From an uncultured bacterium (GTDB taxonomy: Bacteria; Desulfobacterota_D; UBA1144; Nemesobacterales; UBA2774): a stretch of 64,000 nt of DNA. The notes beneath the pieces were generated by a model that searched no databases, was not told the origin of the DNA, and saw nothing but the letters and a program-made list of their open reading frames with translations. The translations under genes and the position numbers were made by a program. The stretch spans positions 768,001 to 832,000 of the forward strand of contig CAWGRW010000009.1 in the NCBI GenBank assembly GCA_963825135.1. Direction: 5' to 3'. Positions 11,901 to 36,120 of this stretch are shown here, in pieces (within the stretch, counting starts at the first letter, position 1; every line of letters starts with the position of its first letter).

Positions 11901-12012
11901 CTTGCAGTCCGGTTGCTTGGGTTTGTCGTGAAAGTCGTATTAAGTGCTGTATTAAACGCGATTATTCGAACAGAGAAAGTGAAGAGCGCATGCAGAATGT
12001 GAGGACTGAATA

Positions 12013-14778
12013 ATGAGAGGGTTGCTGGTCAGTGTTCTGATTCTGGGTTTCCTGCTGACACTATACGTGTACGTTAATACCGATCACGAAAAAACGATTA
12101 TCAAAGAGAACGCCGCGCAGACTACAGAGCTCGGGAACGAAGAAAGCATAAGCCCTCAGGGGAGAGATGACACGAGTTATCAGGTGCAAGAAGGCGACAC
12201 CCTTTCTCAGATCTCGGAAAAATTTCATGTATCGGTCAAAGAGCTAAAAGAATTCAACGGTCTTACCAAGGACGAGCTGTCCGTCGGAGAATTTATCGAC
12301 ATACCGGCCAAGAACGGGACCGAAAACCCTCAAATCGCCGGTGACGGCACGTATGCTCCATACGGAGATCCGGGCGATTCCCAAACCATGACCCAGGCTC
12401 TGAGCGACGGGACGCAGAACCCTTCATATTCGAATGACGGCGCGACGGATCAGAATACCGCCAACGATCAGCAAACATCCGACAGGCAGGCCGAGATAGA
12501 AAAAAGAAGGCAGGAGCTAATCCAGCAAAAGCAACAGCAACACCGGCAGCTGAATCAGGGACGCCATACGCAACAACCAACCGGCCCCGGAAGAATGCAG
12601 AAGTTTCAGCGGCAAGATACGGGTGCTGAAACAAAGGAAACCACACCGGCGGGGACCGAAGTCAAGGCTAAGGAGGAAAAACCCGAGGTCACGATAACCG
12701 ACGGCGAGGTAGTGAACCTGCAATCGGAAATGGATGTGCAGGACCTGATCCAGACTATCAGCGAAATTACGGGGCAGAACTTCATTCTCGACGAATCCGT
12801 AAAAGGAAAGAAAATCACCGTAATCGCACCGGGGGGATTCAAAAAAGAAAACGCAATGCGGCTCTTTGAAACCATCCTCAGCCTGAACGGGTTCTCGGTG
12901 GTGAAGAAGGACGGAACGAATATCATCGTCCCGAAAAGAGACGTAAAAATAACCAGCATACCTACAGAAGTAGGCACACAGCAGGGAGAGTCCTCCGATA
13001 GTTTTATCACGAGGCTGATTCAGCTGAAAAACATACAGGCGAGTGAGGTAGCGAATATACTGAAGCCTCTTATTTCCCGCGAAGGGGACATCGTGGTCTA
13101 CCCGGCCATGAATACCCTCATCATAATCGAAACCGTGGACAACCTGAACAGAATACTGAAAATCATCCAGAATCTGGATGTAGAGACCGAAATCGAATTC
13201 ATAAAGATACACAACGCAGATGCAGCGGAGGTAGCTACCAAGCTCGTTGAAATATTCGGAGGAACGTCTTCCACGTCATCGGGCCCCGCGGCACAGACGC
13301 AGCAGACGCAAAGGCAGTCTTCTTCCCGCACGAGGAATCTTCCGGGATCTCAGAATAAATCCGAGGCCCCGGCGATAACAGCCCAGTCCACAACGGAGAC
13401 ATCCGCAGTGGGCTTTAAAGTGATCACGGACGAAAGGACGAATTCCTTAATAGTAATCGCCTATCCGGACGACATGAAGAAAATCAAATCCGTTATAGAG
13501 ATACTCGACGTGGAAACAGCCGAGCCCGAAGAGGGTATTTATGTTATCCGCGTCTTGAACGCCGACGCCGAATCGATCGTGGGTGTGCTTGCGGGCCTGT
13601 TCGGGGGGAGCACCGGCGGAACCGGACTCGGAGCCGGCAGGTCGCAGAGAAACTCGAGCTCGACTTTCGGATCCGATCAGGGACTCGGCAACTCGTCATC
13701 CAGTACCGGCTCAAGCTCGGCCTTGTCCAGGCAGACGATTGAAAGGGGAGCGGCGAACGGCGCTGTGGCGGTAGCGGAGACCGACGAGCTCAGGGTCACT
13801 TCGGACCCCTCTACGAATTCAATAATTTTTATCGGGTCCAGAAGGGACTACGAGACCATAAAGGAAGTAATACAGGAGCTTGACGTAAGGAGAAAGCAGG
13901 TATTCGTGGAAGCGGCAATTCTCGAAGTAAGTCTGGACAAAATCAGATCTTTCGGGACCAATCTGAGTATAGGATTTACGGTGAACGGCGATACGCTCGG
14001 ATTCGGCGGCACGGTGCTTCCGGGTGTTCCCAGCCTGCTTGGGGTACAGGCGGATCCCGAAGCCTCCGTGAACGTTCTAGGCAGTCTCTCCGGCTTGTTC
14101 CTGGGCGTAGTGGGTCAGGAAGTGGATCCGGACGGCTCCGGACCGATACCGCCTATCCCTTCCTTCAGCGCACTTTTCCAGGCGCTGACATCTCTTACGG
14201 ATGTTAACGTTTTATCCACGCCCAGCATCATGACTACGGACAACGAGCCCGCCGAAATTATAGTGGCTGACGTCATTCCGTTCCCAACCGGGAGCACCGT
14301 CGGGGACAGCGGCGTCACCGTACAGACTATCCAGCGTGAACCCGTAGGCATAAGACTATCCATAACCCCTCAGATCAGCGAGGGCGACTTCCTGAATCTC
14401 AACATCCTGACGGAGGTCTCGGCAATAAGACAGGCCCCGGTACAGGGATTAAATACCGCCCAGTTCGGTATCGCCACCACGACCAGGACCGCCGACTCCT
14501 CCGTCGTCGTGAAGAACGGGCAGACGATCGTAATAGGCGGACTCGTGCAGGACAGGGAGAGCGTCGTCCAGAACAGGGTGCCGGTGCTCGGCAATATACC
14601 AGTGCTGGGCAACCTGTTTAAATACAAGCAGAGGCAGAGTCAGAAGATCAATCTTATGATACTCCTGACGCCGAGAATCGTCGAGAATGAAGAGGATATG
14701 CGGCGGATACTTGAAGAAAGGCAAAGACGCAATATGCTTTTACAGGAGAGGGGGTTTAACAAGGAGGACAGTAACTGA
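12013..14778 (+). CDS. gspD: Type II secretion secretin GspD with N-terminal LysM domain
   Basis: LysM (YQVQEGDTLSQISEKFHVSVKELKEFNGL), N0-N3 domains, QVFVEAAILEV, VPVLGNIPVLGNLF secretin motif. Confidence 0.93.
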   Translation: MRGLLVSVLILGFLLTLYVYVNTDHEKTIIKENAAQTTELGNEESISPQGRDDTSYQVQEGDTLSQISEKFHVSVKELKEFNGLTKDELSVGEFIDIPAKNGTENPQIAGDGTYAPYGDPGDSQTMTQALSDGTQNPSYSNDGATDQNTANDQQTSDRQAEIEKRRQELIQQKQQQHRQLNQGRHTQQPTGPGRMQKFQRQDTGAETKETTPAGTEVKAKEEKPEVTITDGEVVNLQSEMDVQDLIQTISEITGQNFILDESVKGKKITVIAPGGFKKENAMRLFETILSLNGFSVVKKDGTNIIVPKRDVKITSIPTEVGTQQGESSDSFITRLIQLKNIQASEVANILKPLISREGDIVVYPAMNTLIIIETVDNLNRILKIIQNLDVETEIEFIKIHNADAAEVATKLVEIFGGTSSTSSGPAAQTQQTQRQSSSRTRNLPGSQNKSEAPAITAQSTTETSAVGFKVITDERTNSLIVIAYPDDMKKIKSVIEILDVETAEPEEGIYVIRVLNADAESIVGVLAGLFGGSTGGTGLGAGRSQRNSSSTFGSDQGLGNSSSSTGSSSALSRQTIERGAANGAVAVAETDELRVTSDPSTNSIIFIGSRRDYETIKEVIQELDVRRKQVFVEAAILEVSLDKIRSFGTNLSIGFTVNGDTLGFGGTVLPGVPSLLGVQADPEASVNVLGSLSGLFLGVVGQEVDPDGSGPIPPIPSFSALFQALTSLTDVNVLSTPSIMTTDNEPAEIIVADVIPFPTGSTVGDSGVTVQTIQREPVGIRLSITPQISEGDFLNLNILTEVSAIRQAPVQGLNTAQFGIATTTRTADSSVVVKNGQTIVIGGLVQDRESVVQNRVPVLGNIPVLGNLFKYKQRQSQKINLMILLTPRIVENEEDMRRILEERQRRNMLLQERGFNKEDSN

Positions 14779-14793
14779 TTTTAAGTTATTCCT

Positions 14794-16473
14794 ATGAAAA
14801 GCATTCAGGAAATCATAAGCGAGCGAAATCCGGACGCGCTGGTCAGAATCGATGAATTGCTGTCAAAAAACGGGGAAAGCTTCGAGGAAATATTAATTAA
14901 ATCGAGAGTCCTCGACGAGAAAGAAGTTCTTGAGGTCCTTTCCGAATTCTATGAGTATCCGTATACACTGACAATTTCCGAAAGGGAAATAGATCCCGAG
15001 CTTGTAAAAACACTCCCGATCAGCTTCGCGAAAAAATTCAGACTCATTCCGTTTCAGAGGAAAAACGGGAAGGTTATGATAATCCTTGCGCCCCCCCTCG
15101 ACCTTTACGCCCTCGATGAGATTAGATCACTCTTCGGGTGCGAAATCGAACCCGTGCTGGCGTTGAACCATGTTGTCCTCGAAAGCATCAACCGCGTCTA
15201 TGAGCGCGGCAAGGAGATGACGGAGGGGATAGAAGACGATTCCACAGGCATAACGGAATACGACCTCCAGGAGCCCAAAGACCTCCTCGAGGCCGAAGAC
15301 GAAGCCCCTATTATAAGGTTCGTCAATTCACTCCTTTTTCAGGCCGTAAAGGAAAAAGCGAGCGATATACACCTCGAGTGCTTCGAGAAGGAGCTTTCCG
15401 TAAGGTTCAGAAAAGACGGAATACTGCACGAGATAACCTCGGTCCCCAAAAAGCTTCAGGCATCAATAATCTCAAGGGTTAAAATTATGGCGGAGCTCGA
15501 CATAGCGGAGAAGAGAAAACCCCAGGACGGGAGGATCCGCGTCAAGGTTGCGGGAAGGGACGTAGATGTCCGTATATCCACCGTTCCGACTACCTGGGGC
15601 GAGAGCGTGGTAATGAGAATCCTGGACAGGTCCTCAGTCCTCCTCACTCTGGAGGACCTCGGCCTCGCGGGAGAAAAGCTCCATATCTTCGAAGGCCTGA
15701 TTCTGCGGCCTCACGGCATCATACTGGTCACGGGACCCACCGGCAGCGGTAAAACTACCTCTCTTTACGCAGGTCTTGAGAGGATAAATTCTCCCGATAA
15801 AAAGATCATCACAGTTGAAGACCCCGTTGAATACCAGATTCAGGGGATCAATCAGATACAGGTAAATCCCAAGGTAAACCTCACATTCGCAAACGGGCTC
15901 AGATCGATACTCCGTCAGGACCCCGACGTGATCCTGGTCGGCGAGATCAGGGACAGAGAAACCGCGGATATCGCGATACACGCGTCCCTCACGGGGCATC
16001 TCGTTTTCTCCACCCTCCATACGAACGATTCCGCGAGCGCCATAACGAGACTTATAGATATGGAAATAGAACCATTCCTCGTCGCTTCTTCGCTAATGGC
16101 CGTAATAGCGCAGCGCCTCCTGCGGTTCCTCTGCAACTCCTGCAAAGAACCCTACGAGCCCTATGACGACGAGCTGCTAAAAATCGGCATTGACAGGAAA
16201 CAGCTTCGCGACGGCGTCCTTTACAGGGCCAAGGGGTGCGATAAATGTTTTAATATGGGTTATAGCGGGAGAACCGGGATTTTCGAAATGCTCCTTATCA
16301 ACGACGATATTAGGAACCTTACTCTCAGTCAGGTCGATTCGACAAAAATCAAGAGAAAGGCGATGGAGCACGGAATGACCTCACTCAGAATGGACGGGGC
16401 TGAGAAGGTGGCAAGGGGCTTGACCTCGGTTGACGAGGTCATGAGGGTTACCGAAGAGGAAAGCATAATCTAG
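14794..16473 (+). CDS. gspE: Type II secretion ATPase
   Basis: ASDIH, GPTGSGKTT, LRQDPDVILVGEIRD, TGHLVFSTLHTN, CxxC pairs. Confidence 0.96.
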   Translation: MKSIQEIISERNPDALVRIDELLSKNGESFEEILIKSRVLDEKEVLEVLSEFYEYPYTLTISEREIDPELVKTLPISFAKKFRLIPFQRKNGKVMIILAPPLDLYALDEIRSLFGCEIEPVLALNHVVLESINRVYERGKEMTEGIEDDSTGITEYDLQEPKDLLEAEDEAPIIRFVNSLLFQAVKEKASDIHLECFEKELSVRFRKDGILHEITSVPKKLQASIISRVKIMAELDIAEKRKPQDGRIRVKVAGRDVDVRISTVPTTWGESVVMRILDRSSVLLTLEDLGLAGEKLHIFEGLILRPHGIILVTGPTGSGKTTSLYAGLERINSPDKKIITVEDPVEYQIQGINQIQVNPKVNLTFANGLRSILRQDPDVILVGEIRDRETADIAIHASLTGHLVFSTLHTNDSASAITRLIDMEIEPFLVASSLMAVIAQRLLRFLCNSCKEPYEPYDDELLKIGIDRKQLRDGVLYRAKGCDKCFNMGYSGRTGIFEMLLINDDIRNLTLSQVDSTKIKRKAMEHGMTSLRMDGAEKVARGLTSVDEVMRVTEEESII

Positions 16474-16530
16474 CCCGTCTGAAAGGGTTTACCCCAAATT
16501 TAACAGCCGAGATGAAATTTAAATTAAAAA

Positions 16531-17736
16531 ATGCCCGTATACAAATATAAGGCCATAGACGAGACCGGACGAACCGTCCAGGGAATAGTAGACGCGGAAT
16601 CCCCGAAGGGCGCAACGGACAAGCTCAAGCGTCAGGGGGTATTCCTGTCGTCCCTGAACGAGGTCAAAGAAGGGAAATCGAGAGGCTTTTTTCTCTTCGG
16701 CGGCGTAAAAATCGCGGAGCTGGCGATCACGACGAGACAGTTTTCCACCCTCATTTCGGCGGGACTGCCCCTCGAGGCCTCATTAACGGCCCTTTCGGAG
16801 CAAACGGAGGACGCGAGGCTCGGTCAGATATTAACCCAGGTAAAGGACAGGGTCAGCGAGGGCAGCTCCCTGGCCAGCGCCCTGGGCGAGCACAGGAAGG
16901 TCTTCTCCGATCTCTACATAAATATCGTGAGGGCCGGGGAAGCAAGCGGCACGCTCGATATCGTCCTGCTCAGGCTCGCGGACTTCCTGGAAAAACAGGC
17001 CGCCCTTACTTCCAAGGTGAAGAGCGCTCTCATATACCCCATATTCATGTTTTGCATAGGCGGCGGGGTGCTCTTTTTTACGATGACTTATGTAATACCA
17101 AGAATCGCGAAGATTTTCGAGGACAGCCAGAAGGCCTTACCCGTCATGACGGTTATACTGATAAAGGTGAGCGGCTTTTTTAGTAATAACATTCTGCTGC
17201 TCCTGATCTTGCTACCGGTACTCTTTTTCGTGGCTTACAGGTTTAATAAAACGGACCGCGGCAGGATGTTTTTCGACCGCGTATCCCTGAAATTGCCCGT
17301 ATTCGGAAAAATAAATTCCATGGTTGTGATATCGAGGTTCACGCGCACCCTGGGGACGCTGCTCGCGAGCGGCATACCTCTTCTCGACGCTCTCAAGATA
17401 GGCGAAGCGGTATTGGACAACCGGGTTTACAGCAAAACGCTCGAAGAGGTCAGGTCAAATGTAAGGGAGGGGACAAGTCTTGCGAAACCCCTCAAGGACA
17501 GCGGGGTGTTCCCGCCGCTTGTTACCAGAATGATAGCCGTCGGGGAACAGACGGGGGAAATGGAAGAGATGCTCACGAAGGTGGCGGATATCTATGATCA
17601 ACAGGTCGAAACGATGGTCTCCACACTCACATCTCTGCTCGAGCCCGTCATGATATTAATAATAGGCGCGGTAATGGGGTTCATTGTATTCGCGGTTCTC
17701 CTGCCTATATTTAATTTAACGTCAACTATCGGATAA
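16531..17736 (+). CDS. gspF: Type II secretion inner membrane platform protein
   Basis: Two GspF domains (GEASGTL, GEQTGEM), ALIYP, LEP motifs. Confidence 0.95.
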   Translation: MPVYKYKAIDETGRTVQGIVDAESPKGATDKLKRQGVFLSSLNEVKEGKSRGFFLFGGVKIAELAITTRQFSTLISAGLPLEASLTALSEQTEDARLGQILTQVKDRVSEGSSLASALGEHRKVFSDLYINIVRAGEASGTLDIVLLRLADFLEKQAALTSKVKSALIYPIFMFCIGGGVLFFTMTYVIPRIAKIFEDSQKALPVMTVILIKVSGFFSNNILLLLILLPVLFFVAYRFNKTDRGRMFFDRVSLKLPVFGKINSMVVISRFTRTLGTLLASGIPLLDALKIGEAVLDNRVYSKTLEEVRSNVREGTSLAKPLKDSGVFPPLVTRMIAVGEQTGEMEEMLTKVADIYDQQVETMVSTLTSLLEPVMILIIGAVMGFIVFAVLLPIFNLTSTIG

Positions 17737-17751
17737 AAGGAGGTAGTAGAT

Positions 17752-18180
17752 ATGAGATCTCAAGGCGGTTTCACGCTTATCGAAATCATGGTCGTGCTTC
17801 TGATCATAGCCGGTCTCGCATATATTGTGGGCACGAACGTGATCGGAAGGTTCGGGCAAGCCAAGAAGGAAGAAACCAAAATCCAGATAAAGAACCTTGA
17901 GTCGGCACTTAAGCTCTTTAAGCTGGATAACGGATATTACCCGGAGACGCAACAGGGTCTTCAAGCCCTGATACAGCAGCCTACGAGCGGCAGAGAGCCG
18001 TGCTGCTACGCCAAGGAAGGATATCTGGAAGGCGGCCAGGTCCCGAAGGACGGCTGGAAAAACGATTTCGTATACATAGGCCCCGACCAGACGGGCGACG
18101 GCACGTATGAGATCATCTCCATCGGTGAGGACGCCGTACAGCAGACCGAGGACGATCTCACAAGCCGTACCATACAATGA
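17752..18180 (+). CDS. gspG: Major pseudopilin
   Basis: G|FTLIEIMVV prepilin site; YPETQQGLQAL, KDGWKNDFVY. Confidence 0.93.
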   Translation: MRSQGGFTLIEIMVVLLIIAGLAYIVGTNVIGRFGQAKKEETKIQIKNLESALKLFKLDNGYYPETQQGLQALIQQPTSGREPCCYAKEGYLEGGQVPKDGWKNDFVYIGPDQTGDGTYEIISIGEDAVQQTEDDLTSRTIQ

Positions 18181-18692
18181 AGAAGAGGAACGGCTTTTCA
18201 CTCATAGAACTCCTGGTTGTTATCATGATAATCAGCGCTTTTGTATTCATAGCATTGCCGAAAATCCAGAGCGGGACGGAGATGAATATAAAGAGCGCTT
18301 CCAGGAACCTGAGCGGAACTATAAGATATCTTTATAACGAAGCGGCGTTCAAGAAGAATATTTACAGGCTCGTTTTCGATATCGACAGGGGGGAATACTG
18401 GGTCGAGGTGCTTAACAACAACGAGTACGTAGTGTCAACCGATTACCTGCACAAGAAACGGGTGCTGCCGGCCGGAGTCCATTTCAAGGACGTTATTACC
18501 GAACGCACCCTGGGGAAAAGCTCGCTCGACGATTCAGGCGAATTTATCCTGTTTCTGCCCACGGGTTTTGTAGAACCGGCGGTTATTCATTTGGTTACCG
18601 ACAACGAAGTCAACTACACGCTTGAAACAAAACCTTATACCGGCGGAACCAAGGTATACGACGAATACGTAGAGCCGCAGAGGAATGAATAA
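18177..18692 (+). CDS. gspH: Minor pseudopilin H
   Basis: [10 protein letters not shown] prepilin site; position in operon. Confidence 0.8.
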
Positions 18693-19119
18693 ATTGATCC
18701 CGGCCCAAAACGAGTTCCGCGCGGAAGCGGTGCGGCTCAGATCCGGCGTGCGAACGCGGAAAACCGGGTTTACACTTCTGGAAGTGATCATTGCCGTCGC
18801 GATAATAGGTTCGTCCTTAGCCATATTACTCGGAGCGGTGAACAAAAACCTCATCCTCGCCTCTCAATCGAAGAACCTTACGATCGCTTCATTCCTCGCC
18901 CAGAGGAAGATGGGAGAGATAGAGATAGAGGGGTTTCCGGATTTAGGCGACCGGAATGGGGTTTTCGAGGAGAGTCCCGAGTTCAAATGGTATCTGTCGG
19001 TTCAACCGTATAATATCGAGCAGCTCGGCACCGAGATAAGGATAGTCATATTGACCGTCTCATGGGATGAAGGACACAGGGAGTTTAAAGTTGCAACTGC
19101 GATTTCGAACTACAAATGA
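18685..19119 (+). CDS. gspI: Minor pseudopilin I
   Basis: [13 protein letters not shown]; short; position in operon. Confidence 0.8.
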
Positions 19120-19750
19120 CGGCTTCACCCTTATAGAGGTGCTGCTCGCCGTGTTTATCGGGTCCATCGTGCTCACCGTGCTTTACGCCTCATTTTTCCA
19201 GATAAACAAAGCGAAGGCGAGGATCGAGGAAGAGCTCGAGCTGTATCACGAGGCCAGGGTAGTAATGTCGAAAATCACAGGGGACCTCGCGGACGCGTTT
19301 CCCCGCGGACTGGTTAACTCCGGGCAGACGAATGTTACAACCCCCTTTTTTTACGGGGTTAAAGAGGGAGACAAGAGTCGATTGATCTTCAATTCGTTAT
19401 CGCACGCCCCTACTCAGGATGCGAGAGAATCGGACCAAACCCAGATAAGCTATTTTCTAGAGCCTATAGAGGATTCCGACCTGTTTGCGCTCATGAGAAG
19501 GGATAACCCGACCATGGAATCCGAGACAGGAGGCACTCAATACGCTTTATCGGAACGAGTTTCGGGTTTCAACCTGACTTATCTTGCAAAAAACCCGGAG
19601 AGCGGCGAAACCGGAGAATACCTGACCGAATGGAATTCGAATGATACCTTGTCGCTGCCGGTCGCTGTCAGCGTAAATGTGGCATTGAGGAATCCAAGGG
19701 GCGAGGATGTTCAATTCAGCACCCTGGTGATGATACCGATCATGAATTAA
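19067..19750 (+). CDS. gspJ: Minor pseudopilin J (start uncertain)
   Basis: [11 protein letters not shown]-terminal WNS...LPVAV motif. Confidence 0.82.
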
Positions 19751-19798
19751 TATGTGTAAGCTGTCAATCAAAATGAACGGGAACAAAGTCTTTAGACA

Positions 19799-20908
19799 AT
19801 GAAAAACGGAAATCAGCTTAACAATTCGTCAAGGGATAGAGATCACGAAAAAGGGATAGTCCTGGTTATCGTGATTATAATCATAGCGACACTGATGATA
19901 CTCGTCACGGACCTTATTTATTTCACTCAGATTGATACCGAGATATCCTCGAATACTCGGGATGAAATCAAAGCCCGTTACATAGCCAAATCCGGAGTGC
20001 AAGTGGCGGCGGGAGCGCTTAAAGAAGGACCGCTCGAAGAGCTTACGCAGATCACCGCGGCATACGGCGGGCAAACAGGGAATTCAGACGGCTTCTGGTC
20101 ACTCAACGTACCCTTTTTCCCAGTCGGTGAAGGGAATGTGTCCGTCATCGTCACGGACGAGCGGTCCAAGATCAACCTGAATTCGCTGGTGGGCCGTTCC
20201 ACGAATAAAGTAGATCAGCAGGTCCTGACGGAGCTGAACGAGCTTTTCAGGTACCTCGAAGTCGACGACAACAAATCAGCGAGGTTCATTGCGAGCCTGA
20301 TTAACTGGCTTGACGCTCCGCTCGAAGGCGCTGACAACGATCAGGACTCTAATGGAGCGAACGGGGCTTTTTATTCGAGCCTCGAGAATCCTTACAAAAT
20401 TAAAGACGGTCCTCTGGATACGCTCGAGGAAATCAGGATGATCGACGGCATGGACGCCGAATTTTACAACCAGATAAAGGACTACGTAACGGTCTATCCG
20501 CACGACAAGAAAATAAACTTCAGCACCGCCTCCAAGAAGGTGCTTATGGCAGCCGTTAAAGGCTCGTCGGTTCCCGCAATCGCAGGGCAGGGAAATCCTC
20601 CTGAGGAGGTGGACGACGATGTAGCGGAACAGATCGCCGACCAAATAATAGCGGCCAGGAAGGACACGCCGGTCATAAACCAGCAAAAGGCCAGGGAGAT
20701 CGCGAAGAACGTGGACTCGACTTCGGCGATCAGCGCCGGTCTCGTCGGTGTCACCCTCGGCAGCGGGGAAAGTGAAATCTTCTCGGTCAAATCGGTGGGC
20801 AGCCTGGGAGAGGAGAGTCCCACGAAAAGGATCATCGAAGCCGTCCTTAAGAAAACCAAGCAAGATAATGAAATGATAGTGGACATTGTGACATGGAAAG
20901 AACTCTAG
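19799..20908 (+). CDS. gspK: Minor pseudopilin K
   Basis: G|IVLVIV, DERSKINLN, LEEIRMIDGM, INFSTA motifs. Confidence 0.88.
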   Translation: MKNGNQLNNSSRDRDHEKGIVLVIVIIIIATLMILVTDLIYFTQIDTEISSNTRDEIKARYIAKSGVQVAAGALKEGPLEELTQITAAYGGQTGNSDGFWSLNVPFFPVGEGNVSVIVTDERSKINLNSLVGRSTNKVDQQVLTELNELFRYLEVDDNKSARFIASLINWLDAPLEGADNDQDSNGANGAFYSSLENPYKIKDGPLDTLEEIRMIDGMDAEFYNQIKDYVTVYPHDKKINFSTASKKVLMAAVKGSSVPAIAGQGNPPEEVDDDVAEQIADQIIAARKDTPVINQQKAREIAKNVDSTSAISAGLVGVTLGSGESEIFSVKSVGSLGEESPTKRIIEAVLKKTKQDNEMIVDIVTWKEL

Positions 20909-22044
20909 AAAAAATAAGGAAATTAAGGAGCGATCTAAAAACGCGCTACTTCGAAAGGGACGACGTCATAGACGGCGCGTTCTGCGCTCTCCTTACGGGA
21001 AGCCACATCCTTCTAATCGGTCCGCCGGGGACCGCCAAATCCCAGCTGGCGAATGAAATCTGCCGCAAGATCAGCGGGGCCCGTTATTTTCAGTGGCTTC
21101 TCACCAAGTTCACGACGCCCGAGGAGTTGTTCGGCGCCGTAAGCCTGAGGGGCCTCGAGAACGATGAATACAGGAGGGTCACTTCCGGCAAGCTGCCCGA
21201 AGCGCACATCGCCTTCCTCGACGAGGTATTCAAAGCCAGTTCCTCGATACTCAACACTCTGCTCACGATCATGAACGAGAGAGTTTTTTATAACGGGACC
21301 GAAAAAGTCAGGATCCCTCTCATTTCTCTTTTCGGCGCAAGCAACGAGCTGCCTTCGGAGGAAGACGACCTCGAAGCCCTTTATGACAGGTTCTTGCTGA
21401 GATACGTGGTGGACTATATAAAAGAAGACTTTAGATTTCTTAAGATGCTGAACACGGAGAACGAAATATCCGAAGAAGGGATAATTACATACGAGGAGCT
21501 CGATCACTGCAGGACCGAAACGGAGAAAGTAAAGCTCCCCGCCAACATTTTGAAGCTGATATCGCGGATCAGAAAAGAGCTCGGGAAAAAGGGCGTCGTG
21601 CCTTCCGACAGGAGATATAAACAATCCGTCTCTCTTCTTAAATCGAGGGCGTACCTTGAAGGGAGGAGCGAGGTCACGGAGGACGACCTCCGTTTTCTTG
21701 AAAATATATTATGGAGAGACCCCGGAGAAAAAGCCGAAATCCAGTCAGTCATCCATCAATCCCTCCACGGGTGGAGAGACAGCCTGAGAGAGCTGCTCAT
21801 TCAGGCAAAAGAGCTTGATACTTATTCCAGGCGGGAATGGGAGAGCGAAGAAATGCTTATCAAGGCCAACATCGAAGCCCAGACAAAATTAAAACACATC
21901 GGCGCGAAGCTCGAGGACCTGGTCGAGGAATGCACGGAGAGGGGAAAACCCACGGATGAAATCAAAGCGGCGAGAGAAGAGATAGAGGGCATTCAGAGGG
22001 AGATTCTCGACAGGCTCGTATCGAGCAAGGAAGAAATGGCTTAG
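20893..22044 (+). CDS. MoxR-family AAA+ ATPase, RavA-like
   Basis: GPPGTAKS, TKFTTPEELFG, FLDEVFKASSSILNTLL, ASNELP, ALYDRF, SDRR; overlaps the gspK 3' end by 16 nt. Confidence 0.88.
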   Translation: MERTLEKIRKLRSDLKTRYFERDDVIDGAFCALLTGSHILLIGPPGTAKSQLANEICRKISGARYFQWLLTKFTTPEELFGAVSLRGLENDEYRRVTSGKLPEAHIAFLDEVFKASSSILNTLLTIMNERVFYNGTEKVRIPLISLFGASNELPSEEDDLEALYDRFLLRYVVDYIKEDFRFLKMLNTENEISEEGIITYEELDHCRTETEKVKLPANILKLISRIRKELGKKGVVPSDRRYKQSVSLLKSRAYLEGRSEVTEDDLRFLENILWRDPGEKAEIQSVIHQSLHGWRDSLRELLIQAKELDTYSRREWESEEMLIKANIEAQTKLKHIGAKLEDLVEECTERGKPTDEIKAAREEIEGIQREILDRLVSSKEEMA

Positions 22045-29721: not shown

Positions 29722-31089
29722 CTACTTCAAATTGCTTCCGTCGGCACAGAGCTGGGTGAGGATGCTGCAGGGTTTTTTGCTCCGGTTGCCGCACTCGTCC
29801 TTCGCCGCCTTTACAGCCTCGTCCATGTCGGCATAATAGCCCCATCCGAGAGCGCCGTCCTCACTCCTGGCTACGGCGCCGCAGTCTGTAAACGAAATCC
29901 TCATCTGACAGTTAGGCCCGTACTTCACGCACTCATCGACCGCCGCCTTTTCCGCCTGAACCCGCGTGGGATAGTTCCATGCCGTGCCGTATTGCCCGTT
30001 GTCGGCCGTGGCTATCGCCGCCCATACGTTCACCCGCTTTGTGCTTCCGTCCGAGCATAACTCTATGAACGAAGAGCATACGTCGTTGGTATACTTGTGA
30101 CATTCGCTGACCGCGTTGTTTCTCGCCAGATCGACGGTCGAGTTCGTCGCCCACCCGAAGGCCCCGTCCGGGGCCGTGGCATAAACAGCGCAGGTGTTAA
30201 ACGAGACTTTAATCTCACAGCCCGTATTGAACTGGCTGCACCTTTCGACGGCGTCTTTCTCGGCCGCCTGTTTCGAGGGCATGTTCGTCGAAAATCCATA
30301 TCCGCCGCTCGGCGAAACAGCTATAGATCCCCAGTTCCCTTCGTTGTCGTATGGACCGGGTGGGGACGGAGTATATACGGGGGGCCGGTAATCTTTGTCA
30401 TCGCCGATTATCTTATGGGGTTGATCGTTCTTCTCTCCGTCCTTACCCCCACCGCCGAAAATCAGATAACCGGCCAGTCCTAAAACCACTACTACAGCAA
30501 TTAAACCCCCGAGTTTCTTTTTATCGCCGAGGAAAGACCTTCCGCCGGAATAATCCTTCTTTTCGAGCGGCCTTATGGTTTCCATACGCTGATCCGGTCC
30601 CTGATCGGCTTTTGCCGAACCGGATTGGGACGCCCCGCTTATCCCGGCGGCATTATCATCGGCTTCGGACTCGACGCGCGCTCCCATTCTCGAAAGCAGG
30701 AGCTTGATAGTCGACAGCAGCTGTGCAAGGTGTTTTTCGAGCGGCGGGGTTAGAGCGTCGAGCCAATGCGGAGCGCTTATAAAGTATTCGAGGGATTTAT
30801 TGGGATCGACGTCCTCCACCCTGAACGGAATGACCGGTATGCCTTTGCTTACCGCACGCTCGACTTCCCTGATTATTTGCTGGGACTCATTGGCGTTGGA
30901 CGAGAACACGAGGACCATCACCCGGCTTGAGCTTATGGCGTCGATAATCGCCTCGCCCCACTGCGTGCCGGGCACTATGTCCCTGGGGGCAATCCAGCAT
31001 CTGACGCCGCCTTTTTCCAGAGTCGCGCATACTGCGTCCGCAACGGGTTTGTCTTTCGCCGAGTGACTGATAAAAACATCGTGAGCCAT
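29722..31089 (-). CDS. TIR domain - TM - 2x DUF4189-like membrane protein
   Basis: DVFISHS..D, WIAPRDI.PG, IIREVERA (catalytic Glu position); TM LGGLIAVVVVLGLAGYLIF; two ~97-aa repeats (WGSIAV.../WAAIAT...) with 6 Cys each, ending CSDGS/CADGS. Confidence 0.88.
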   Translation of the reverse strand: MAHDVFISHSAKDKPVADAVCATLEKGGVRCWIAPRDIVPGTQWGEAIIDAISSSRVMVLVFSSNANESQQIIREVERAVSKGIPVIPFRVEDVDPNKSLEYFISAPHWLDALTPPLEKHLAQLLSTIKLLLSRMGARVESEADDNAAGISGASQSGSAKADQGPDQRMETIRPLEKKDYSGGRSFLGDKKKLGGLIAVVVVLGLAGYLIFGGGGKDGEKNDQPHKIIGDDKDYRPPVYTPSPPGPYDNEGNWGSIAVSPSGGYGFSTNMPSKQAAEKDAVERCSQFNTGCEIKVSFNTCAVYATAPDGAFGWATNSTVDLARNNAVSECHKYTNDVCSSFIELCSDGSTKRVNVWAAIATADNGQYGTAWNYPTRVQAEKAAVDECVKYGPNCQMRISFTDCGAVARSEDGALGWGYYADMDEAVKAAKDECGNRSKKPCSILTQLCADGSNLK

Positions 31090-31143
31090 GTATTTTTCCC
31101 CTCTCCTCCAGACGAAATTCTTGAGGATTATAGCTGTGATTGA

Positions 31144-32928
31144 CTACCCAGGCAACACCAAACGCTTGGATTGAAAAACTATTCTCCAGTCCAGGTTTTC
31201 AGAGGTCATAATCTCCGCCGTATTTTCAGCGATGAAGCCGAGAAGCCGGTAGGAGGGAACGAAGTCCGCCTTATCGAGCTCGTTCCTCAGATTCTCCAGA
31301 TGTGCGCTCATGGCATCCGACCTCTTCGCTATGAGCTCGAATTCCCCCTGTGTCCTGATGCTATAGAATGCCGCTCCCAATGCGGGGAAAATAGCGGCGC
31401 AGATCGTGAGCCAGTCCTTGTGAAAATACAGATGGGAAAGGCATGCTATAACCGTGAGCACGAATAGCGCGGAGCCGATGATATGCAGTGTGTCATGGAT
31501 CCTGTGGAAACGGGGAGAGTTGCGCTTGTGATAATTAATCTGCCCGGTGATCTCCTGCTCCGACAAAAAGGCCCTGTATGATCCGAGGTATCCGGCGTCT
31601 ATCTTCGCTTCCACCAATCCGGCCTCCCGAACCACCGCCCTGAAGTGCCAGTTCACCCAGGAGTTCCTGGGGTCTCCGTACGTATCGTGGGCCGGCACCC
31701 TGAACGCCGGCGTCGTCAGACCGAGCGGTGCAAGAAATCTGAGCTGTCTCAGCTGTTCGGACAGGAGCCTGTAATCGATCCACCTCTCGTGCCATCGTTT
31801 TATATTCCCGATGACGGTGATCATTATTATCAGCAGGATCAGAGCGAGCTCGCATGATATCCACAGGTCCTCAAATCTCGTTACAGTCGGAAGCAGCGCG
31901 AAAAAGACCGCCAGCCCGGCCAGCAGGTAGTTAGCCAGAAAGGAGCTCCTGTAAATATTTGAATAGTAATTCGCGAGCTTGTCGGCCCAGGTATAATGCG
32001 TAAGGAATTTTTCGTTTATCTGCTCCTTCACGGAAAGCGGAAAGTCAGGACACGAATCCCATTTCATCCGCCATTCTTCTATTGTCGCTTCATCGAAATT
32101 CCTGACGCTCGCGCCCCCCGTATCTATCCGTTCTCCCGCGAATACATCGCAGAAAGTTTCAAATAGGAATCCCCAAGTCCAGGAAGGCTGTCTTTCCTGA
32201 AAATACGTCCTGCTGAGGTCGGGTCTCCGGGGGGACAGGTGTTTTAAAACCCTCTTCAGCCGCAGCTCGAGCTCGCGCACGCCCACTTTTCTAAACCCTT
32301 CGTATTCTCCGCCCATAAGGACGCTCATATCGTGCGGGGCCGCGGAGTTTATCCAGACCACTGGTATTTCGTTAATGAGCGCTTCCTTCACCACCTGACC
32401 CGTACCCCCCTTCCCTTTCGCGTCCTCCCCGTCCCATATAGCGATCAGCACGTCGCTCTGTGCGAGCACCATGCGTCCTACGGCCTGATAGGACTCGTTC
32501 TCGGCCTCGGGCGTCGATCTCGAACCGTCGAGCTCAAATACGGAGGTGGCTTTGGCGAGCATCGCCCTGTAGTTCTCGATTGACGCGCCGTCCGCAAAAT
32601 CCTTTTCATATTCATAACGGCTGAAAGGAAGCGCACACTGAAGCTCATATCCTTCCTTAAGCGCCTCCTCGGCGACAAGCATGTCGGCCCCCTCTGCGAG
32701 AGGAGATATTACCCTCAGCGCAGGGGGTCCGCCGTCGGCATAGAGGGACTCGGAAGACGACTTTACCTCGTTCGCGACTCCACTTATATGTCTCAGGACT
32801 TCATTGATGCGCGTCCCCAGCATCCCGGTGTCCGCATTCTCGAGTCCGGCGGGACGGTGACCCGTGACGCCGACCCTGACTGCGAGGCGGGCTTTCGGGG
32901 GAGATTTCAATTTCATGCCGGCGTTCAT
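31144..32928 (-). CDS. SLOG (YpsA-like) + tandem SLATT/DUF4231-like membrane effector
   Basis: VGVTGHR, SPLAEGAD, AIWDG..GKGGT SLOG motifs; two 2-TM modules with ADKLANYY, WIDYRLLSEQLR, QINYH, ENLDW. Confidence 0.8.
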   Translation of the reverse strand: MNAGMKLKSPPKARLAVRVGVTGHRPAGLENADTGMLGTRINEVLRHISGVANEVKSSSESLYADGGPPALRVISPLAEGADMLVAEEALKEGYELQCALPFSRYEYEKDFADGASIENYRAMLAKATSVFELDGSRSTPEAENESYQAVGRMVLAQSDVLIAIWDGEDAKGKGGTGQVVKEALINEIPVVWINSAAPHDMSVLMGGEYEGFRKVGVRELELRLKRVLKHLSPRRPDLSRTYFQERQPSWTWGFLFETFCDVFAGERIDTGGASVRNFDEATIEEWRMKWDSCPDFPLSVKEQINEKFLTHYTWADKLANYYSNIYRSSFLANYLLAGLAVFFALLPTVTRFEDLWISCELALILLIIMITVIGNIKRWHERWIDYRLLSEQLRQLRFLAPLGLTTPAFRVPAHDTYGDPRNSWVNWHFRAVVREAGLVEAKIDAGYLGSYRAFLSEQEITGQINYHKRNSPRFHRIHDTLHIIGSALFVLTVIACLSHLYFHKDWLTICAAIFPALGAAFYSIRTQGEFELIAKRSDAMSAHLENLRNELDKADFVPSYRLLGFIAENTAEIMTSENLDWRIVFQSKRLVLPG

Positions 32929-32934
32929 AGCATT

Positions 32935-34788
32935 TTATCCTTTGGGCACCTCTATAGGCACATTCCTGTGAGTCCAGAGCCAGTCGCTGTTCTCAAGAAG
33001 CGCTTCCCTGCCGACCGCGACGAGAACCCTCTCTGCAGGCACTTTCCCTATTTCCAGCTCTCTCCTCGCGGAAGCATAAGTTTGCTGGGCCAGGCTGTAT
33101 CTCCTCTCAAGCTCGTCATAAGCCCTCTTGCTTTTATACGCCTGGGCGGCAACACCCACGGCGGCAATGGCTCCTAAAAGAATCTGAAAATCATTTATAG
33201 CATTGTTGTTACCGACCCCCGCGATCACTACGTACACTCCATACACGAGAGCGATCAGGAGAGTAAACACAAAGGACAGGAAAGTGATATTGCCGAACTG
33301 CCGGGACATGGCCAGGAGCGGTCTTTTTTTTGACCTGAAATAATCGAGCTGAGATTCAATCCAGAGCCTTTTGGTAATATCCAGGAATTGAGCATTCTGC
33401 CGTACCGGTTTAGCGCCGCCGGCTCTCAATGTCATGATCTCGACGCTTCTCACGGCCTTTCTTATCCATGTCAGCAAACCCTCATATTTACTCAGGTAAT
33501 GCGAGGATACGTTCTCGTTTATCCCGGAGAGCGTCCAAAAAAACTGGACCCTGAGGCCCTCCGCGAGCGCCCTGTAGTCGAGGAAGCGGTCCTCTATCCT
33601 TTCCCTCGAGGTCTTTTTCACCAGGAGCGCTATTGCGGGGATGAGACCGATGTAAAACAGAACCAGATAAGAACTCATATCGATCAGCCCGTACAGTACG
33701 ACGGCTATAAAAAATAGTACGTATATCCAGTTGACGAGTCTCGCGGTTTTTTTTTGATAGAACTGCGATAAAACGTCCGCCCCGGAGTAAAGGCGCATAA
33801 TTTTCCCGAGCGTCTCATCCCCCGATATGAGCTCGTTATCATACTCGTCCTGTAACAAATACTTCATGGATTTAACGAGCTCTTTATCACCGTGATCGTC
33901 GAGATAATTTTTTATATCGAGATTAAAACCCTCGATCCTCTCGACGATGCCTATGAAGGGCGTGTGTTCATATCTGTCCCCGGTATCCGCTCCGGCGCGC
34001 TTAAAAAAACGGTCATATAGATTATCGAGGGTATTGCTCACCGATTGAACAAGGCTGAAAAATTTCCGGGAGGCGGCCCTGAGCACGGCGCTCGGAATTC
34101 CGAATTGCCTTCCGGAGACGTTGAGCTCTGCCGAGGAATCTTCCTCGTAAGGAACGGATTCCGCCCTGCTCCGGCGGGTCTGCGGATTTATCGTTATAAT
34201 CATGCTCTTGTCCATATTATCGAGACCGGTCTTATTCTCCCTGAGAGAGTATTCCCGCGTTATGCTGCCTTCGCGTATCCACTTTATTATCTGCGCAGTC
34301 GTATCAGGCTCTTCCATATCGTCATCGGCACATATCGCAAAAAGGATTTCGCTGTGTTCGGCAATAAAGGCGGCGGCGAATCTCTCGGTCAACGCCTGAT
34401 CCCCTATTAAGCCGTCTCTCTCCCCTCCAAGTCGTGATCTAATTTGGGACGAGATGTCTATAGATGACTCGGCCTGTCCGAGAACCCGCCTGAAATCCTC
34501 CCCGTTTTCATCGTCCGCGAGCGCATTTTCATAGCGCCCGAGCGGCATAGGGAGTATCGCAATAAGTCTCGCGTTTAGGTGCTCAATCGCAAGCCTCGCC
34601 GTCAGACGCTCCTCGCTCTCGGCGAGAGAGGATATAACGACGAACGGTGAGTTGGGAAAAGTATTGCGGAGCCGGACCATCTCGGAGATTATAAGACCCG
34701 AGATGCTCTCCTCTTCGGCAATATCGCCTTTCCGGCTGCTCACGCCAATAACAATCGGGATTAGGTAGTCTTCGCTTATCGGTGGCAT
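32935..34788 (-). CDS. Degenerate SLOG + tandem SLATT/DUF4231-like membrane protein
   Basis: Same architecture as the adjacent gene (IGVSSRK, SSLAESEE, ILPM; ADVLSQFY, FLDYRALAEGLR, QLDYF, ENSDW). Confidence 0.75.
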   Translation of the reverse strand: MPPISEDYLIPIVIGVSSRKGDIAEEESISGLIISEMVRLRNTFPNSPFVVISSLAESEERLTARLAIEHLNARLIAILPMPLGRYENALADDENGEDFRRVLGQAESSIDISSQIRSRLGGERDGLIGDQALTERFAAAFIAEHSEILFAICADDDMEEPDTTAQIIKWIREGSITREYSLRENKTGLDNMDKSMIITINPQTRRSRAESVPYEEDSSAELNVSGRQFGIPSAVLRAASRKFFSLVQSVSNTLDNLYDRFFKRAGADTGDRYEHTPFIGIVERIEGFNLDIKNYLDDHGDKELVKSMKYLLQDEYDNELISGDETLGKIMRLYSGADVLSQFYQKKTARLVNWIYVLFFIAVVLYGLIDMSSYLVLFYIGLIPAIALLVKKTSRERIEDRFLDYRALAEGLRVQFFWTLSGINENVSSHYLSKYEGLLTWIRKAVRSVEIMTLRAGGAKPVRQNAQFLDITKRLWIESQLDYFRSKKRPLLAMSRQFGNITFLSFVFTLLIALVYGVYVVIAGVGNNNAINDFQILLGAIAAVGVAAQAYKSKRAYDELERRYSLAQQTYASARRELEIGKVPAERVLVAVGREALLENSDWLWTHRNVPIEVPKG

Positions 34789-35273
34789 GTTCGGGTTTCA
34801 CTGCACATACAGCATCTTACTCCGCGTAACCGGTATCCGTGCGGAAGAAATCAGGCCCGCGAAACCCCAGGCTGGCACTGCCCGGGCGTTGCGAATATCT
34901 CCGGTAACCGTATCGATCTCTTCCATGAATATACGATTGAGCGCTTTAAAGGGCTCAGAACGTCCCGGATTGCGGGAACAGCCCCTCATAGTTTTATGAC
35001 CCATCGTAAACAGATCCCATATATGACCCGGCGATATAACAATTCTAATAATGCGGGAGTAATAATTCAATAACTCCGCAAAGTCGATTGAGATGCGGGT
35101 TCAGGCGATGGGGTATATCACGGTACTGTTTCTTGAACGGTCCCGGATACGACGGGAGCAATAATCGCGATATCAATATTCCTGTTGCGAAAATCGACTC
35201 TCACCGTATATAATTGAATGACTTACGAATCGTGAAGCCGTAAAAGACCATAAAGTCCGGAGGAATCACCGTT

Positions 35274-35672
35274 ATGAAAAAGCAGAAGCTCATGATCCTG
35301 GTACTGTTGGCAGCATGCCCGTTCATATTGACAGGATGCCTGGCCGCCGCCGCCGTAGGCGGGGCCGCCGCCGCCGGAGCAGGTACGGTAGCGTATATAA
35401 AAGGCGAATTGAAGGCCACTGAAGAAGCGACTCTGAACAAGACATGGCAAGCGACGGTCGCCGCGATAGACGGACTCCAGTTTCTGGTCGTCAATAAGAT
35501 AAAGGACAACGTCTCGGCGGAGCTCGAAGCGAAAACCGCCGATAACAAGACCGTGAAGATACAGCTCAAGAGAGTCACCGACAACCTCACCGACATATCT
35601 ATCAGGATCGGCACGTTCGGCGATGAAAGCCTTTCCCGCTATATACTCAGCAAGATAGAGGCCAAGCTCTAG
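35274..35672 (+). CDS. DUF3568-family lipoprotein
   Basis: Lipobox LTGC, Ala/Gly-rich helix, SIRIGTFGDE. Confidence 0.8.
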   Translation: MKKQKLMILVLLAACPFILTGCLAAAAVGGAAAAGAGTVAYIKGELKATEEATLNKTWQATVAAIDGLQFLVVNKIKDNVSAELEAKTADNKTVKIQLKRVTDNLTDISIRIGTFGDESLSRYILSKIEAKL

Positions 35673-35757
35673 AGGCCGGACGCAGCCCGGGTCGGGGTCA
35701 AGGCGAACCCCTATCGACACCGGCCTTCGGGTAAAATCGTTTCCAGGACCTAAAAAT

Positions 35758-36120
35758 ATGATTTCACCCGAAAAAACCGCGCGTATAGCGAAGGACTGGA
35801 TAGATGCCTGGAATAGACACGACCTCGATTCCATACTGTCTCATTATGCCGAGGAGGTGGAATTCACTTCCCCATTCGCGGTAAGACTCATGGGGGAACC
35901 CTCCGGTACAATCAAGGGAAAGGACAGGCTGAGGGAGTATTTCGACAAGGGGCTAAAGGCCTATCCCGATCTCAAATTCGAGCTCTTAAAGGTGTTTACG
36001 GGAGTCGGAAGTCTGACGATTTACTACCGGAGTGTTAAAGGGATGCTGGCCGCTGAGGTCATGTTTCCGGGAAGCGACGGAAGAATAGAGACGGTCATTG
36101 TTCATTATGCGGAAGGATGA
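35758..36120 (+). CDS. SnoaL/NTF2-like protein
   Basis: WIDAWNRHDLDSILSHYAE, GKDRLREYF. Confidence 0.85.
   Translation: MISPEKTARIAKDWIDAWNRHDLDSILSHYAEEVEFTSPFAVRLMGEPSGTIKGKDRLREYFDKGLKAYPDLKFELLKVFTGVGSLTIYYRSVKGMLAAEVMFPGSDGRIETVIVHYAEG

Follow-up and report, generated by a model that had tools for sequence, protein, structure and literature searches.

Thoeris systems known to date have been described as intracellular phage sensors with small TIR proteins. The name of the SLATT domain records its association with the SLOG domain, and both SLOG-SLATT and TIR-SLATT associations were reportedly predicted by Burroughs and colleagues in 2015 by comparative genomics. In animals, TRPM2 is a cation channel with an N-terminal SLOG-like domain that is gated by ADP-ribose (ADPR), and Toll-like receptors consist of an outer sensor, a transmembrane (TM) segment and a cytoplasmic TIR domain. 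This paper concerns a bacterial locus of three genes, designated A, B and C, which encode SLOG-fold, SLATT and TIR domains side by side and are located in a stretch of 64,000 nucleotides from an uncultured bacterium (assembly GCA_963825135.1, contig CAWGRW010000009.1, positions 768,001 to 832,000); this whole stretch is referred to as the window, and gene coordinates refer to it unless a comparison locus is named.

SLATT proteins have been predicted to act as 2-TM pore effectors that respond to nucleotide signals and are partnered with SLOG and TIR proteins (Iyer et al. 2022, PMC9503650; Kaur et al. 2020, PMC7159879). TIR-SLATT neighbourhoods are in print, together with the prediction that SLATT acts at the membrane as an effector under the control of ADP-ribose derivatives (PMC9503650). 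In type VII Thoeris, which has been validated against phage, the TIR protein ThsB is combined with the SLATT effector ThsH and the signal is canonical cyclic ADP-ribose (cADPR) (bioRxiv 10.64898/2025.12.03.692087). The SLOG domain of type I Thoeris binds 3'cADPR, SLOG being the sensor in types I and III, and the Thoeris survey concerned retained only TIR clusters that are enriched near defence genes (bioRxiv 10.64898/2025.12.03.692087). Moreover, PCTM systems combine ParA, a C-terminal TM segment and a periplasmic TPR- or SPOR-like domain with an upstream SLATT or caspase effector, and for the ParA-TM-periplasmic proteins that are paired with SLATT the sensing of periplasmic perturbation has been proposed (bioRxiv 10.64898/2026.10.19.760177).

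An earlier reading of the window by a model (the sequence-only reading) had proposed that A, B and C form an undescribed nucleotide-signalling or immunity operon, in which two SLOG-SLATT effectors are served by a transmembrane TIR receptor. This paper describes the follow-up of that proposal by domain, structure and genome comparisons. The data revealed that genes for B-type proteins recur beside TIR genes in several phyla, and that most of the partner TIR proteins are membrane-anchored. On balance, we lean towards the interpretation that A-B-C encodes a receptor-type, Thoeris-like second-messenger pathway.

Results

Organization of the A-B-C operon

Genes A, B and C all lie on the minus strand and are separated by gaps of 6 nt (A-B) and 54 nt (B-C), in exact agreement with the open reading frame (ORF) coordinates and the layout read earlier. 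They constitute a single three-gene operon, because these gaps lie on one strand and the group is bounded by a divergent gene on one side and a convergent gene on the other. The divergent gene, at 35274-35672 on the plus strand, encodes a lipoprotein-like protein of 132 residues with a signal peptide ending in LTGC, and the convergent gene, downstream of C, encodes a DUF3108 protein.

32935..34788, minus strand: gene A, ORF of 617 residues, lineage-restricted paralog of B with a SLOG-fold N-terminus and two 2-TM SLATT-like modules
31144..32928, minus strand: gene B, ORF of 594 residues, widely conserved SLOG and tandem SLATT membrane protein, predicted signal-gated effector
29722..31089, minus strand: gene C, ORF of 455 residues, TIR domain, single TM segment and two DUF4189 domains, predicted N-in/C-out membrane receptor

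Conserved coupling of B-type and TIR genes

The family of B is large: 842 relatives were found at E<=1e-3 among 8000 scored candidates, and at least 566 genomic matches were confirmed among the 600 pattern matches listed, with a concentration in little-studied soil and sediment phyla. From the confirmed matches 79 loci were kept for comparison, which together with the window gave a set of 80; TIR ORFs in these loci were found with a profile built from 20 Pfam-confirmed TIR domains, and neighbouring proteins (74 and 64) were scanned with Pfam. Conservation of the complete trio had been set beforehand as a refutation test of the sequence-only reading. The trio is confined to four of the 79 loci (L001-L004), all close relatives from Dadabacteria or Thermodesulfobacteriota metagenome-assembled genomes in which the whole neighbourhood is syntenic with the window, so that the trio failed this test outside one lineage, whereas the pairing of B with a TIR gene did recur. 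The conserved unit is the B + TIR pair and not the trio.

In 43 of the 80 loci a TIR ORF was found no more than 5 kb from B, in 40 no more than 3 kb and in 18 no more than 300 bp away, and in the 60 loci that offer at least 3 kb on both sides of B, a TIR was found within 3 kb in 32. The density of TIR ORFs is 17.3 per 100 kb at 0-1 kb from B, as compared to 0-0.9 per 100 kb at 5-8 kb. The TIR subfamily of C (53-67% identity to its TIR domain) was encountered in Acidobacteriaceae, Planctomycetaceae, Methylococcales and other lineages, in which the adjacent B-type proteins are 35-43% identical to B. Among the 51 partner TIR ORFs, 32 have exactly one hydrophobic segment after the TIR domain and none before it, followed by 80-470 residues, 11 have no such segment, and 8 show other patterns. 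The outer-domain types include TM-DUF4189, TM-FGE-sulfatase, TM-TPR, TM-PDZ, TM-SPOR and TM-BNR; other partner TIRs are fused to WD40, AAA_35, TPR, SIR2_2 or PNP_UDP_1, or to nothing recognisable. The occurrence of many partner TIR architectures across several phyla argues for repeated selection of the B-TIR pairing. An adjacency far beyond chance, falling off with distance, supports a functional link between B-type and TIR genes, as had been anticipated from the window.

The loci of the comparison set displayed several further features. In two of them (L034:5060-7986 and L051:4993-7969) two tandem transmembrane TIR genes lie directly upstream of B; those of L034 encode one protein with TPR repeats and one with FGE-sulfatase, and both TIR domains are 56-67% identical to that of C. 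A channel-like protein of about 600-720 residues, with two N-terminal hydrophobic segments, TrkA_N (RCK, NAD-binding type) and sometimes RyR, was found at L012:9792-11843, L018:2058-4139, L047:9798-11765, L020:6144-7943 and L041:5398-7209, and in about 20 Acidobacteriaceae loci; its gene is positioned directly after B, often with a gap of 3 nt, and before the TIR gene, and it looks like a second channel-like effector. In three unrelated loci (L026:1145-2311, L042:7191-8573 and L060:9818-11641), B is adjoined by a gene for a patatin-like phospholipase that runs in the other direction. Finally, DUF4062 proteins adjoin B in four loci (L020:2757-5963, L025:10561-13599, L009:9946-12237 and L063:6425-6714); two of these proteins also contain STAND/NACHT-type ATPase and TPR parts. 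The DUF4062 proteins may be alternative partners to the TIR proteins.

The membrane TIR protein C

30718..31086, minus strand: cytoplasmic TIR domain of C, residues 2-124 (TIR_2, E 8.4e-23), Glu75 at the conserved catalytic position
30457..30513, minus strand: single TM segment of C, residues 193-211, with DKKK just before it (Kyte-Doolittle scan score 2.54)
30055..30333, minus strand: DUF4189 domain 1 of C, residues 253-345 (best Pfam stretch), six Cys at 284, 291, 300, 330, 338 and 345
29746..30024, minus strand: DUF4189 domain 2 of C, about residues 356-448, six Cys at 387, 394, 403, 433, 441 and 448

The TIR-TM-2xDUF4189 architecture proposed earlier for C was recovered in full by Pfam, which matched TIR_2 at residues 5-124 (81.6 bits, cut-off 28), TIR (36.3 bits, cut-off 21.3) and, in two stretches, DUF4189 (138.1 bits, cut-off 25, E 1.5e-40), and by the single hydrophobic segment. 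The 12 Cys of the C-terminal part fall into two groups of six, each Cys of the second group lying 103 residues beyond its counterpart in the first, and a sequence search of the PDB matched residues 356-426 to Rv1813c (7nhz, E 7.4e-5). In the catalytic column of the alignment, Glu75 of C corresponds to Glu in 50 of the 51 B-linked TIRs, and its counterpart in Cat1 is the Glu of the 'WDELE' stretch; this conserved residue we take to be the catalytic residue of NADase activity. With its profile match and conserved Glu, the TIR domain of C fits the enzymatic, NAD+-cleaving class, and such an activity is predicted for it.

A DUF4189 protein has been described that is periplasmic, contains three disulfides and binds the pilus-tip protein of a type IV secretion system (bioRxiv 10.64898/2026.05.09.723464), and the six-Cys pattern of each DUF4189 domain in C agrees with the three-disulfide periplasmic fold described there. 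The order of TIR domain, TM segment and DUF4189 implies that the TIR lies inside and DUF4189 outside, which would make C a single-pass inner-membrane protein with a cytoplasmic TIR domain and two disulfide-rich DUF4189 domains in the periplasm. The receptor orientation that had been postulated is indirectly supported across the family by the 32 partner TIRs with one segment after the TIR domain; a general extracytoplasmic cue is not, in view of the 11 without a segment.

The SLOG-SLATT-SLATT protein B

32284..32886, minus strand: SLOG-fold domain of B, about residues 15-215, invariant G20, G23, H24, R25, A78, G80, D82, W165, G175 and T176
31732..32007, minus strand: first SLATT/DUF4231 2-TM module of B, residues 308-399, hydrophobic pair 331-373
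31186..31551, minus strand: second SLATT 2-TM module of B, residues 460-581, hydrophobic pair 477-524

The hydropathy scan of B revealed four hydrophobic segments, arranged in two pairs. Its first module matched Pfam DUF4231 at residues 314-397 (29.8 bits, cut-off 24.7), and NCBIfam SLATT_1 matched B in two stretches (58.7 bits, cut-off 41), of which the first spans residues 308-399; the second module matched Pfam SLATT_1 at residues 460-581 below threshold (E 0.0025), a model that matches 23 of the 30 B-family members. The AlphaFold2 model of B reached a predicted local distance difference test (pLDDT) of 88.9 and a predicted template-modelling score (pTM) of 0.88, and in a Foldseek comparison with the PDB its best matches were YpsA (2nx2, probability 1.00, target-based template-modelling score, TM-target, 0.60) and DprA (probability 1.00), with TRPM4 also listed; a sequence search of the PDB with B returned a single match at chance level (E=1). 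The loops GVTGHR, AEGAD and WDG...GGTG do not vary among 30 relatives with identities as low as 40%.

YpsA, DprA, the MoCo carrier protein and the TRPM N-terminal domain are reportedly all members of the SLOG superfamily. As judged from the predicted models, the N-terminal domains of both B and A have the SLOG fold, which is in line with the SLOG-like N-termini read earlier. The N-terminal domain of B belongs to this fold class and to no modelled family, because neither B nor A nor any of 30 B relatives was matched at E<=1 by a Pfam SLOG family, including the Thoeris-associated one. Likewise, 19 further B relatives of unusual length contained no Pfam SLOG model at E<=1e-3 and no extra fused domains. 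With 6209 representatives at E<=1e-3, the SLOG domain of B defines a family of its own that is covered by no Pfam model, and in the Protein Atlas residues 1-235 of B retrieved YpsA clusters alone, with scores of 0.79-0.83, which is below the level that counts. Of the Pfam families that had been expected in the operon, TIR_2, DUF4189 and DUF4231 were found and SLOG was not.

Stand-alone copies of the B-type SLOG domain, of about 220-290 residues, were encountered at L058:7980-8654, L059:8001-8663 and L062:7980-8651, and in L065, L066 and L075; in three Thermoanaerobaculia/Acidobacteriota loci the stand-alone gene lies immediately upstream of a full-length B. Thermomicrobiales loci contain SLOG copies without a SLATT part in the match, and many proteins of 200-300 residues are present among the best 150 relatives of the SLOG domain.

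Protein A, a degenerate paralog of B

34144..34767, minus strand: SLOG-fold domain of A, about residues 8-215, degenerate glycine loops, secondary-structure order as in B
33544..33792, minus strand: first SLATT/DUF4231-like 2-TM module of A, about residues 333-415, aligned to the first module of B
33037..33360, minus strand: second SLATT-like 2-TM module of A, about residues 477-584, aligned to the second module of B

A and B are 21% identical over 577 columns in BLASTP (E 2e-6), and profile-profile alignment of A with the B family by hhalign (probability 99.8%, E 1e-28, 543 columns) revealed that they are collinear end to end. A contains four hydrophobic segments, at 351-390 and 504-548. All model matches of its modules are sub-threshold, i.e., Pfam DUF4231 at 347-415 (E 0.0065) and NCBIfam SLATT_3 at 333-411 (E 0.0026) for the first module, and Pfam SLATT_1 at 477-579 (E 0.0025) and NCBIfam SLATT_1 at 495-584 (E 3.4e-5) for the second. 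The AlphaFold2 model of A has an overall pLDDT of 67.2, with N-terminal blocks mostly at 70-90, and Foldseek ranked YpsA first (probability 1.00, TM-target 0.60), followed by DprA, the MoCo carrier protein and TRPM channels. The description of A and B as paralogs of approximately 600 residues, each with two 2-TM SLATT/DUF4231 modules, was borne out by these results: the modules of B exceed cut-offs, and those of A are sub-threshold alone and homologous to B end to end.

Where B has GVTGHR, AEGAD and GGTG, A has GVSSRKG, AESEE and DTTA, and the A-family consensus at these sites is GVS(G/S)RKG, A(G/E)xE(D/E) and ...DTTA, so that the WDG...GGTG loop of B is likewise replaced. The family is small, as 26 relatives were retrieved from a set of 5.8 billion proteins with residues 1-330 of A as the only query. 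In a quick tree A did not come out as a recent copy of the neighbouring B, a placement that speaks neither for nor against a fast-evolving duplicate. Outside the close family, P0147 (587 residues) is the sole distant relative of the N-terminal half of A (28% identity, E 1.8e-12); the same tree joins it to A by a very long branch.

Prediction of an A-B complex of the membrane halves gave a score of 0.34, against 0.00 for the best of three controls. Of 157 solved complexes, 116 pass the mark applied to such scores, as do 2 of 215 mismatches; at scores of up to 0.60, only 18 of the 157 pass it, together with both of these mismatches. At least 76% of the contacts agree between runs, and the pLDDT of the partners is at least 70. 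A is probably an accessory, structural or regulatory partner that co-assembles with B or modulates it, rather than a second equivalent sensor, and the idea of two equivalent effectors has become doubtful, as A is devoid of the invariant GHR, AEGAD and WDG...GGTG loops of B.

Genomic context of the locus

The 64-kb window encodes DnaJ, a UvrA-like protein, a type II secretion system (T2SS) cluster, Suf proteins, IlvD, superoxide dismutase, a class II ribonucleotide reductase and a sigma factor, and it contains no integrase, transposase or recognised defence gene. A tRNA scan and an Rfam scan of the window were both negative, so that neither an RNA element nor an integration site borders the locus. 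PADLOC (2023), which had been suggested as a check for an already named system, returned no families for A and B, partial TIR matches only for C, and no system call.

34789..35273, no strand assigned: divergent intergenic region between A (minus strand) and the lipoprotein-like gene (plus strand), the presumed promoter region of A-B-C

A promoter and terminator scan gave numbers close to those expected from shuffled sequence, with 7 promoter-like matches as compared to a mean of 5.3. The lipoprotein-like ORF is conserved at 96% identity in L002 and 67% in L004. A fourth gene upstream of A (ORF 34798-35070, 90 residues) was rejected, since it is poorly conserved (46% over 50 residues in one of the four loci), and the minus-strand ORFs 35223-35834 and 35201-35614 were discarded as shadows of the plus-strand lipoprotein-like gene.

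Elsewhere in the window, the T2SS cluster (10965-22044, plus strand) encodes T2SS component C, a secretin bearing a LysM domain, components E and F, pseudopilins, and components J and K, and is followed, with overlap, by a gene for a MoxR-type AAA ATPase of the MoxR-vWA-beta-propeller ternary kind (bpMoxR, E 3.6e-59). The UvrA-like protein (5471-8203, minus strand) is an ABC ATPase of 910 residues with UvrA DNA-binding and interaction domains.

Discussion

Proposed mechanism and alternative explanations

In the receptor-type pathway that we favour, a periplasmic or envelope cue would gather C molecules, of which the TIR domains would self-associate and turn NAD+ into an ADPR-derived messenger, e.g., a cyclic ADPR isomer. 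This messenger would be bound by the cytoplasmic SLOG domain of B, the tandem SLATT four-helix membrane module of B would then open or oligomerise, and the outcome might be membrane permeabilisation or ion flux, leading to growth arrest or death.

Several observations weigh against this interpretation. No TIR was found in the flanking DNA examined of 37 of the 80 loci, nor within 3 kb in 28 of the 60 loci in which B has 3 kb or more of DNA on each side, and B can therefore exist without an adjacent TIR. The recurring 2TM-TrkA_N(-RyR), patatin and DUF4062-STAND neighbours suggest alternative or additional partners. Ligand binding by the SLOG domain of B is predicted solely from fold and motif conservation, because no Pfam SLOG family matches, and the membrane topology of A, B, C and the partner TIRs was derived from a crude hydropathy scan. 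The complex score weakly suggests contact between A and B, and with this weak computational support the two-subunit channel of the sequence-only reading was overstated. In the quick tree, drawn with midpoint rooting, A (six rows) is set apart from all 30 B rows by a long branch. Finally, the locus resides in syntenic housekeeping DNA and not in a defence island; with such flanks and no PADLOC match for A or B, the immunity role that had been proposed is not supported by the context and stands unproven.

The same genes could encode a cytoplasm-sensing, type VII-like Thoeris system for abortive infection, in which the TIR detects an intracellular phage component and the TM segment and DUF4189 domains merely anchor or localise it, which we consider unlikely. 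TIR + SLATT operons do defend against phage with a cADPR signal (bioRxiv 10.64898/2025.12.03.692087), and the 11 of 51 B-linked TIR ORFs without a hydrophobic segment, together with others that carry cytoplasm-type WD40, TPR or AAA_35 parts, are in agreement with such sensing and imply that an extracytoplasmic cue cannot be universal for the family. Anchoring alone, however, would hardly explain why 32 of the 51 are single-TM TIRs, often with DUF4189, SPOR, PDZ, FGE-sulfatase or BNR domains, and the position in syntenic core DNA, away from defence genes and mobile genes and without a PADLOC system call, also speaks against a phage-defence system of this kind. This position, inherited stably and vertically among housekeeping genes in relatives with B down to 59% identical, would suit a physiological module that serves neither immunity nor suicide, in which the membrane TIR reports the state of the envelope or cell wall and the SLOG-SLATT proteins are regulated ion or solute conduits, analogous to TRPM2. 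The peptidoglycan- or envelope-related outer domains (SPOR, PDZ) of partner TIRs, the recurrence of the 2TM + TrkA_N channel-like protein in B loci, and the presence of TRPM among the fold matches of A and B point in the same direction. We nevertheless regard a physiological module as quite unlikely, considering that the literature compared, as far as it was available, describes SLATT/TIR signalling pairs only in conflict or defence contexts, that no metabolic or transport genes are consistently co-transcribed, and that the TRPM matches, obtained by aligning whole proteins, have low TM-scores.

Highly improbable, in our view, is an arrangement with uncoupled or reversed roles, in which the TIR is an NAD+-depleting toxin and the SLOG proteins are LOG-like nucleotide hydrolases, or simply unrelated adjacent membrane proteins. 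Some bacterial TIRs are indeed NAD+-depleting effectors and not signal makers (bioRxiv 10.64898/2025.12.03.692087), TIR, DrHyd and SLOG domains can act as effectors, signal generators or sensors (bioRxiv 10.64898/2026.10.19.760177), and weak Nuc_deoxyrib_tr matches were obtained in 2 of 30 B relatives. Against this stand the B-TIR adjacency far beyond chance, with many TIR architectures in several phyla, and the organization of A, B and C as one operon, spaced 6 and 54 nt apart on a single strand and bounded by a divergent and a convergent gene.

Returning to the receptor-type pathway, it may be part of something larger, which we put forward as possible, if doubtful: B-type proteins and their partners could represent a large unnamed class of bacterial transmembrane TIR receptors with a Toll-like-receptor-like layout and interchangeable periplasmic sensors, which would convert envelope events (phage tail or pilus penetration, contact-dependent attack, cell-wall damage) via an NAD+-derived messenger into the response of a SLOG-coupled membrane conduit, accompanied in the loci of some lineages by the 2TM-RCK-RyR channel-like protein. 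Such a class would represent the prokaryotic equivalent, and perhaps an antecedent, of ADPR/cADPR-gated TRPM-/RyR-type signalling, and the conduit of the present locus would be a hetero-oligomer of B (active) and A (pocket-degenerate). If the TIRs are triggered from outside the cytoplasmic membrane, the family would exemplify outside-in signalling through a bacterial TIR receptor and a nucleotide second messenger. Such a family would provide a clean test case for the control of TIR clustering by a ligand-binding ectodomain, as well as a tractable single-chain model for the step from SLOG to membrane effector. The A/B pair is a natural example of an active subunit combined with a subunit of which the binding pocket has degenerated.

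Comparison with known systems

As in type VII Thoeris, the TIR gene adjoins the gene for a SLATT membrane protein, and the proposed flow runs from the TIR product to the membrane effector. Unlike ThsH, which the available part of the source describes as a SLATT protein in which ligand pockets lie between the protomers, and without mention of SLOG, the B chain contains a SLOG domain and two SLATT modules; this distinction is drawn from the description of ThsH and not from its sequence. The locus further differs from type VII Thoeris in its degenerate paralog A, its membrane-anchored TIR with periplasmic DUF4189 domains and the absence of a defence island. B resembles the type I effector ThsA (SIR2-SLOG) and type III Thoeris (several TIRs with a SLOG effector) in that a SLOG fold is the presumed receptor of a TIR-made ADPR derivative, whereas its output is a tandem SLATT membrane module and not SIR2, and, unlike in types I and III, no Pfam SLOG family, the Thoeris-associated one included, matches B; the NCBIfam ThcB4 model of type III Thoeris scored 17.4 bits against a cut-off of 220. 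The locus shares with Thoeris the gene for a TIR signal generator beside that for an effector with a predicted ligand-sensing domain, and is without defence-island enrichment or recognition by PADLOC models; in contrast to the TIR clusters retained by the Thoeris survey, it is not near defence genes.

PCTM systems are similar in that a single-pass sensor of type II, variable in its periplasmic domain, is coupled to a SLATT effector, but their cytoplasmic module is a ParA NTPase where the present one is a TIR domain, and the available text on PCTM mentions no SLOG. With TRPM2-type channels B shares a cytoplasmic SLOG fold that is fused to a membrane module, TRPM4, TRPM8 and TRPM2 being among the fold matches; the membrane parts are unrelated, i.e., SLATT 2-TM hairpins versus a 6-TM channel. 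Toll-like receptors are likewise single-pass TIR proteins with an outward-facing sensor, but the TIR of C is N-terminal and the order is reversed. The resemblance to TRPM2 and Toll-like receptors is one of logic and not of demonstrated descent.

The combination of domains was not recognised as a named system in the sequence-only reading; its kind, however, is known from the TIR-SLATT neighbourhoods (PMC9503650) and from type VII Thoeris (bioRxiv 10.64898/2025.12.03.692087). Within the literature searched, a fusion of SLOG with tandem SLATT that is paired with transmembrane TIR receptors is undescribed, and preprint supplements may contain it. What sets the locus apart from the published SLOG-SLATT and TIR-SLATT accounts, in the parts available, is the SLOG subfamily of B, the tandem-SLATT fusion, and the transmembrane TIR partners with periplasmic domains, some of which the 2015 work of Burroughs and colleagues may include. 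As the TIR-to-SLATT signalling logic is already known, the locus is a receptor-like variant of the Thoeris type and not a wholly new system, and it is distinguished by its receptor-type TIR partners, a single-chain SLOG-SLATT-SLATT family unmodelled by Pfam and PADLOC, a pair of active and degenerate paralogs, and a core-genome setting.

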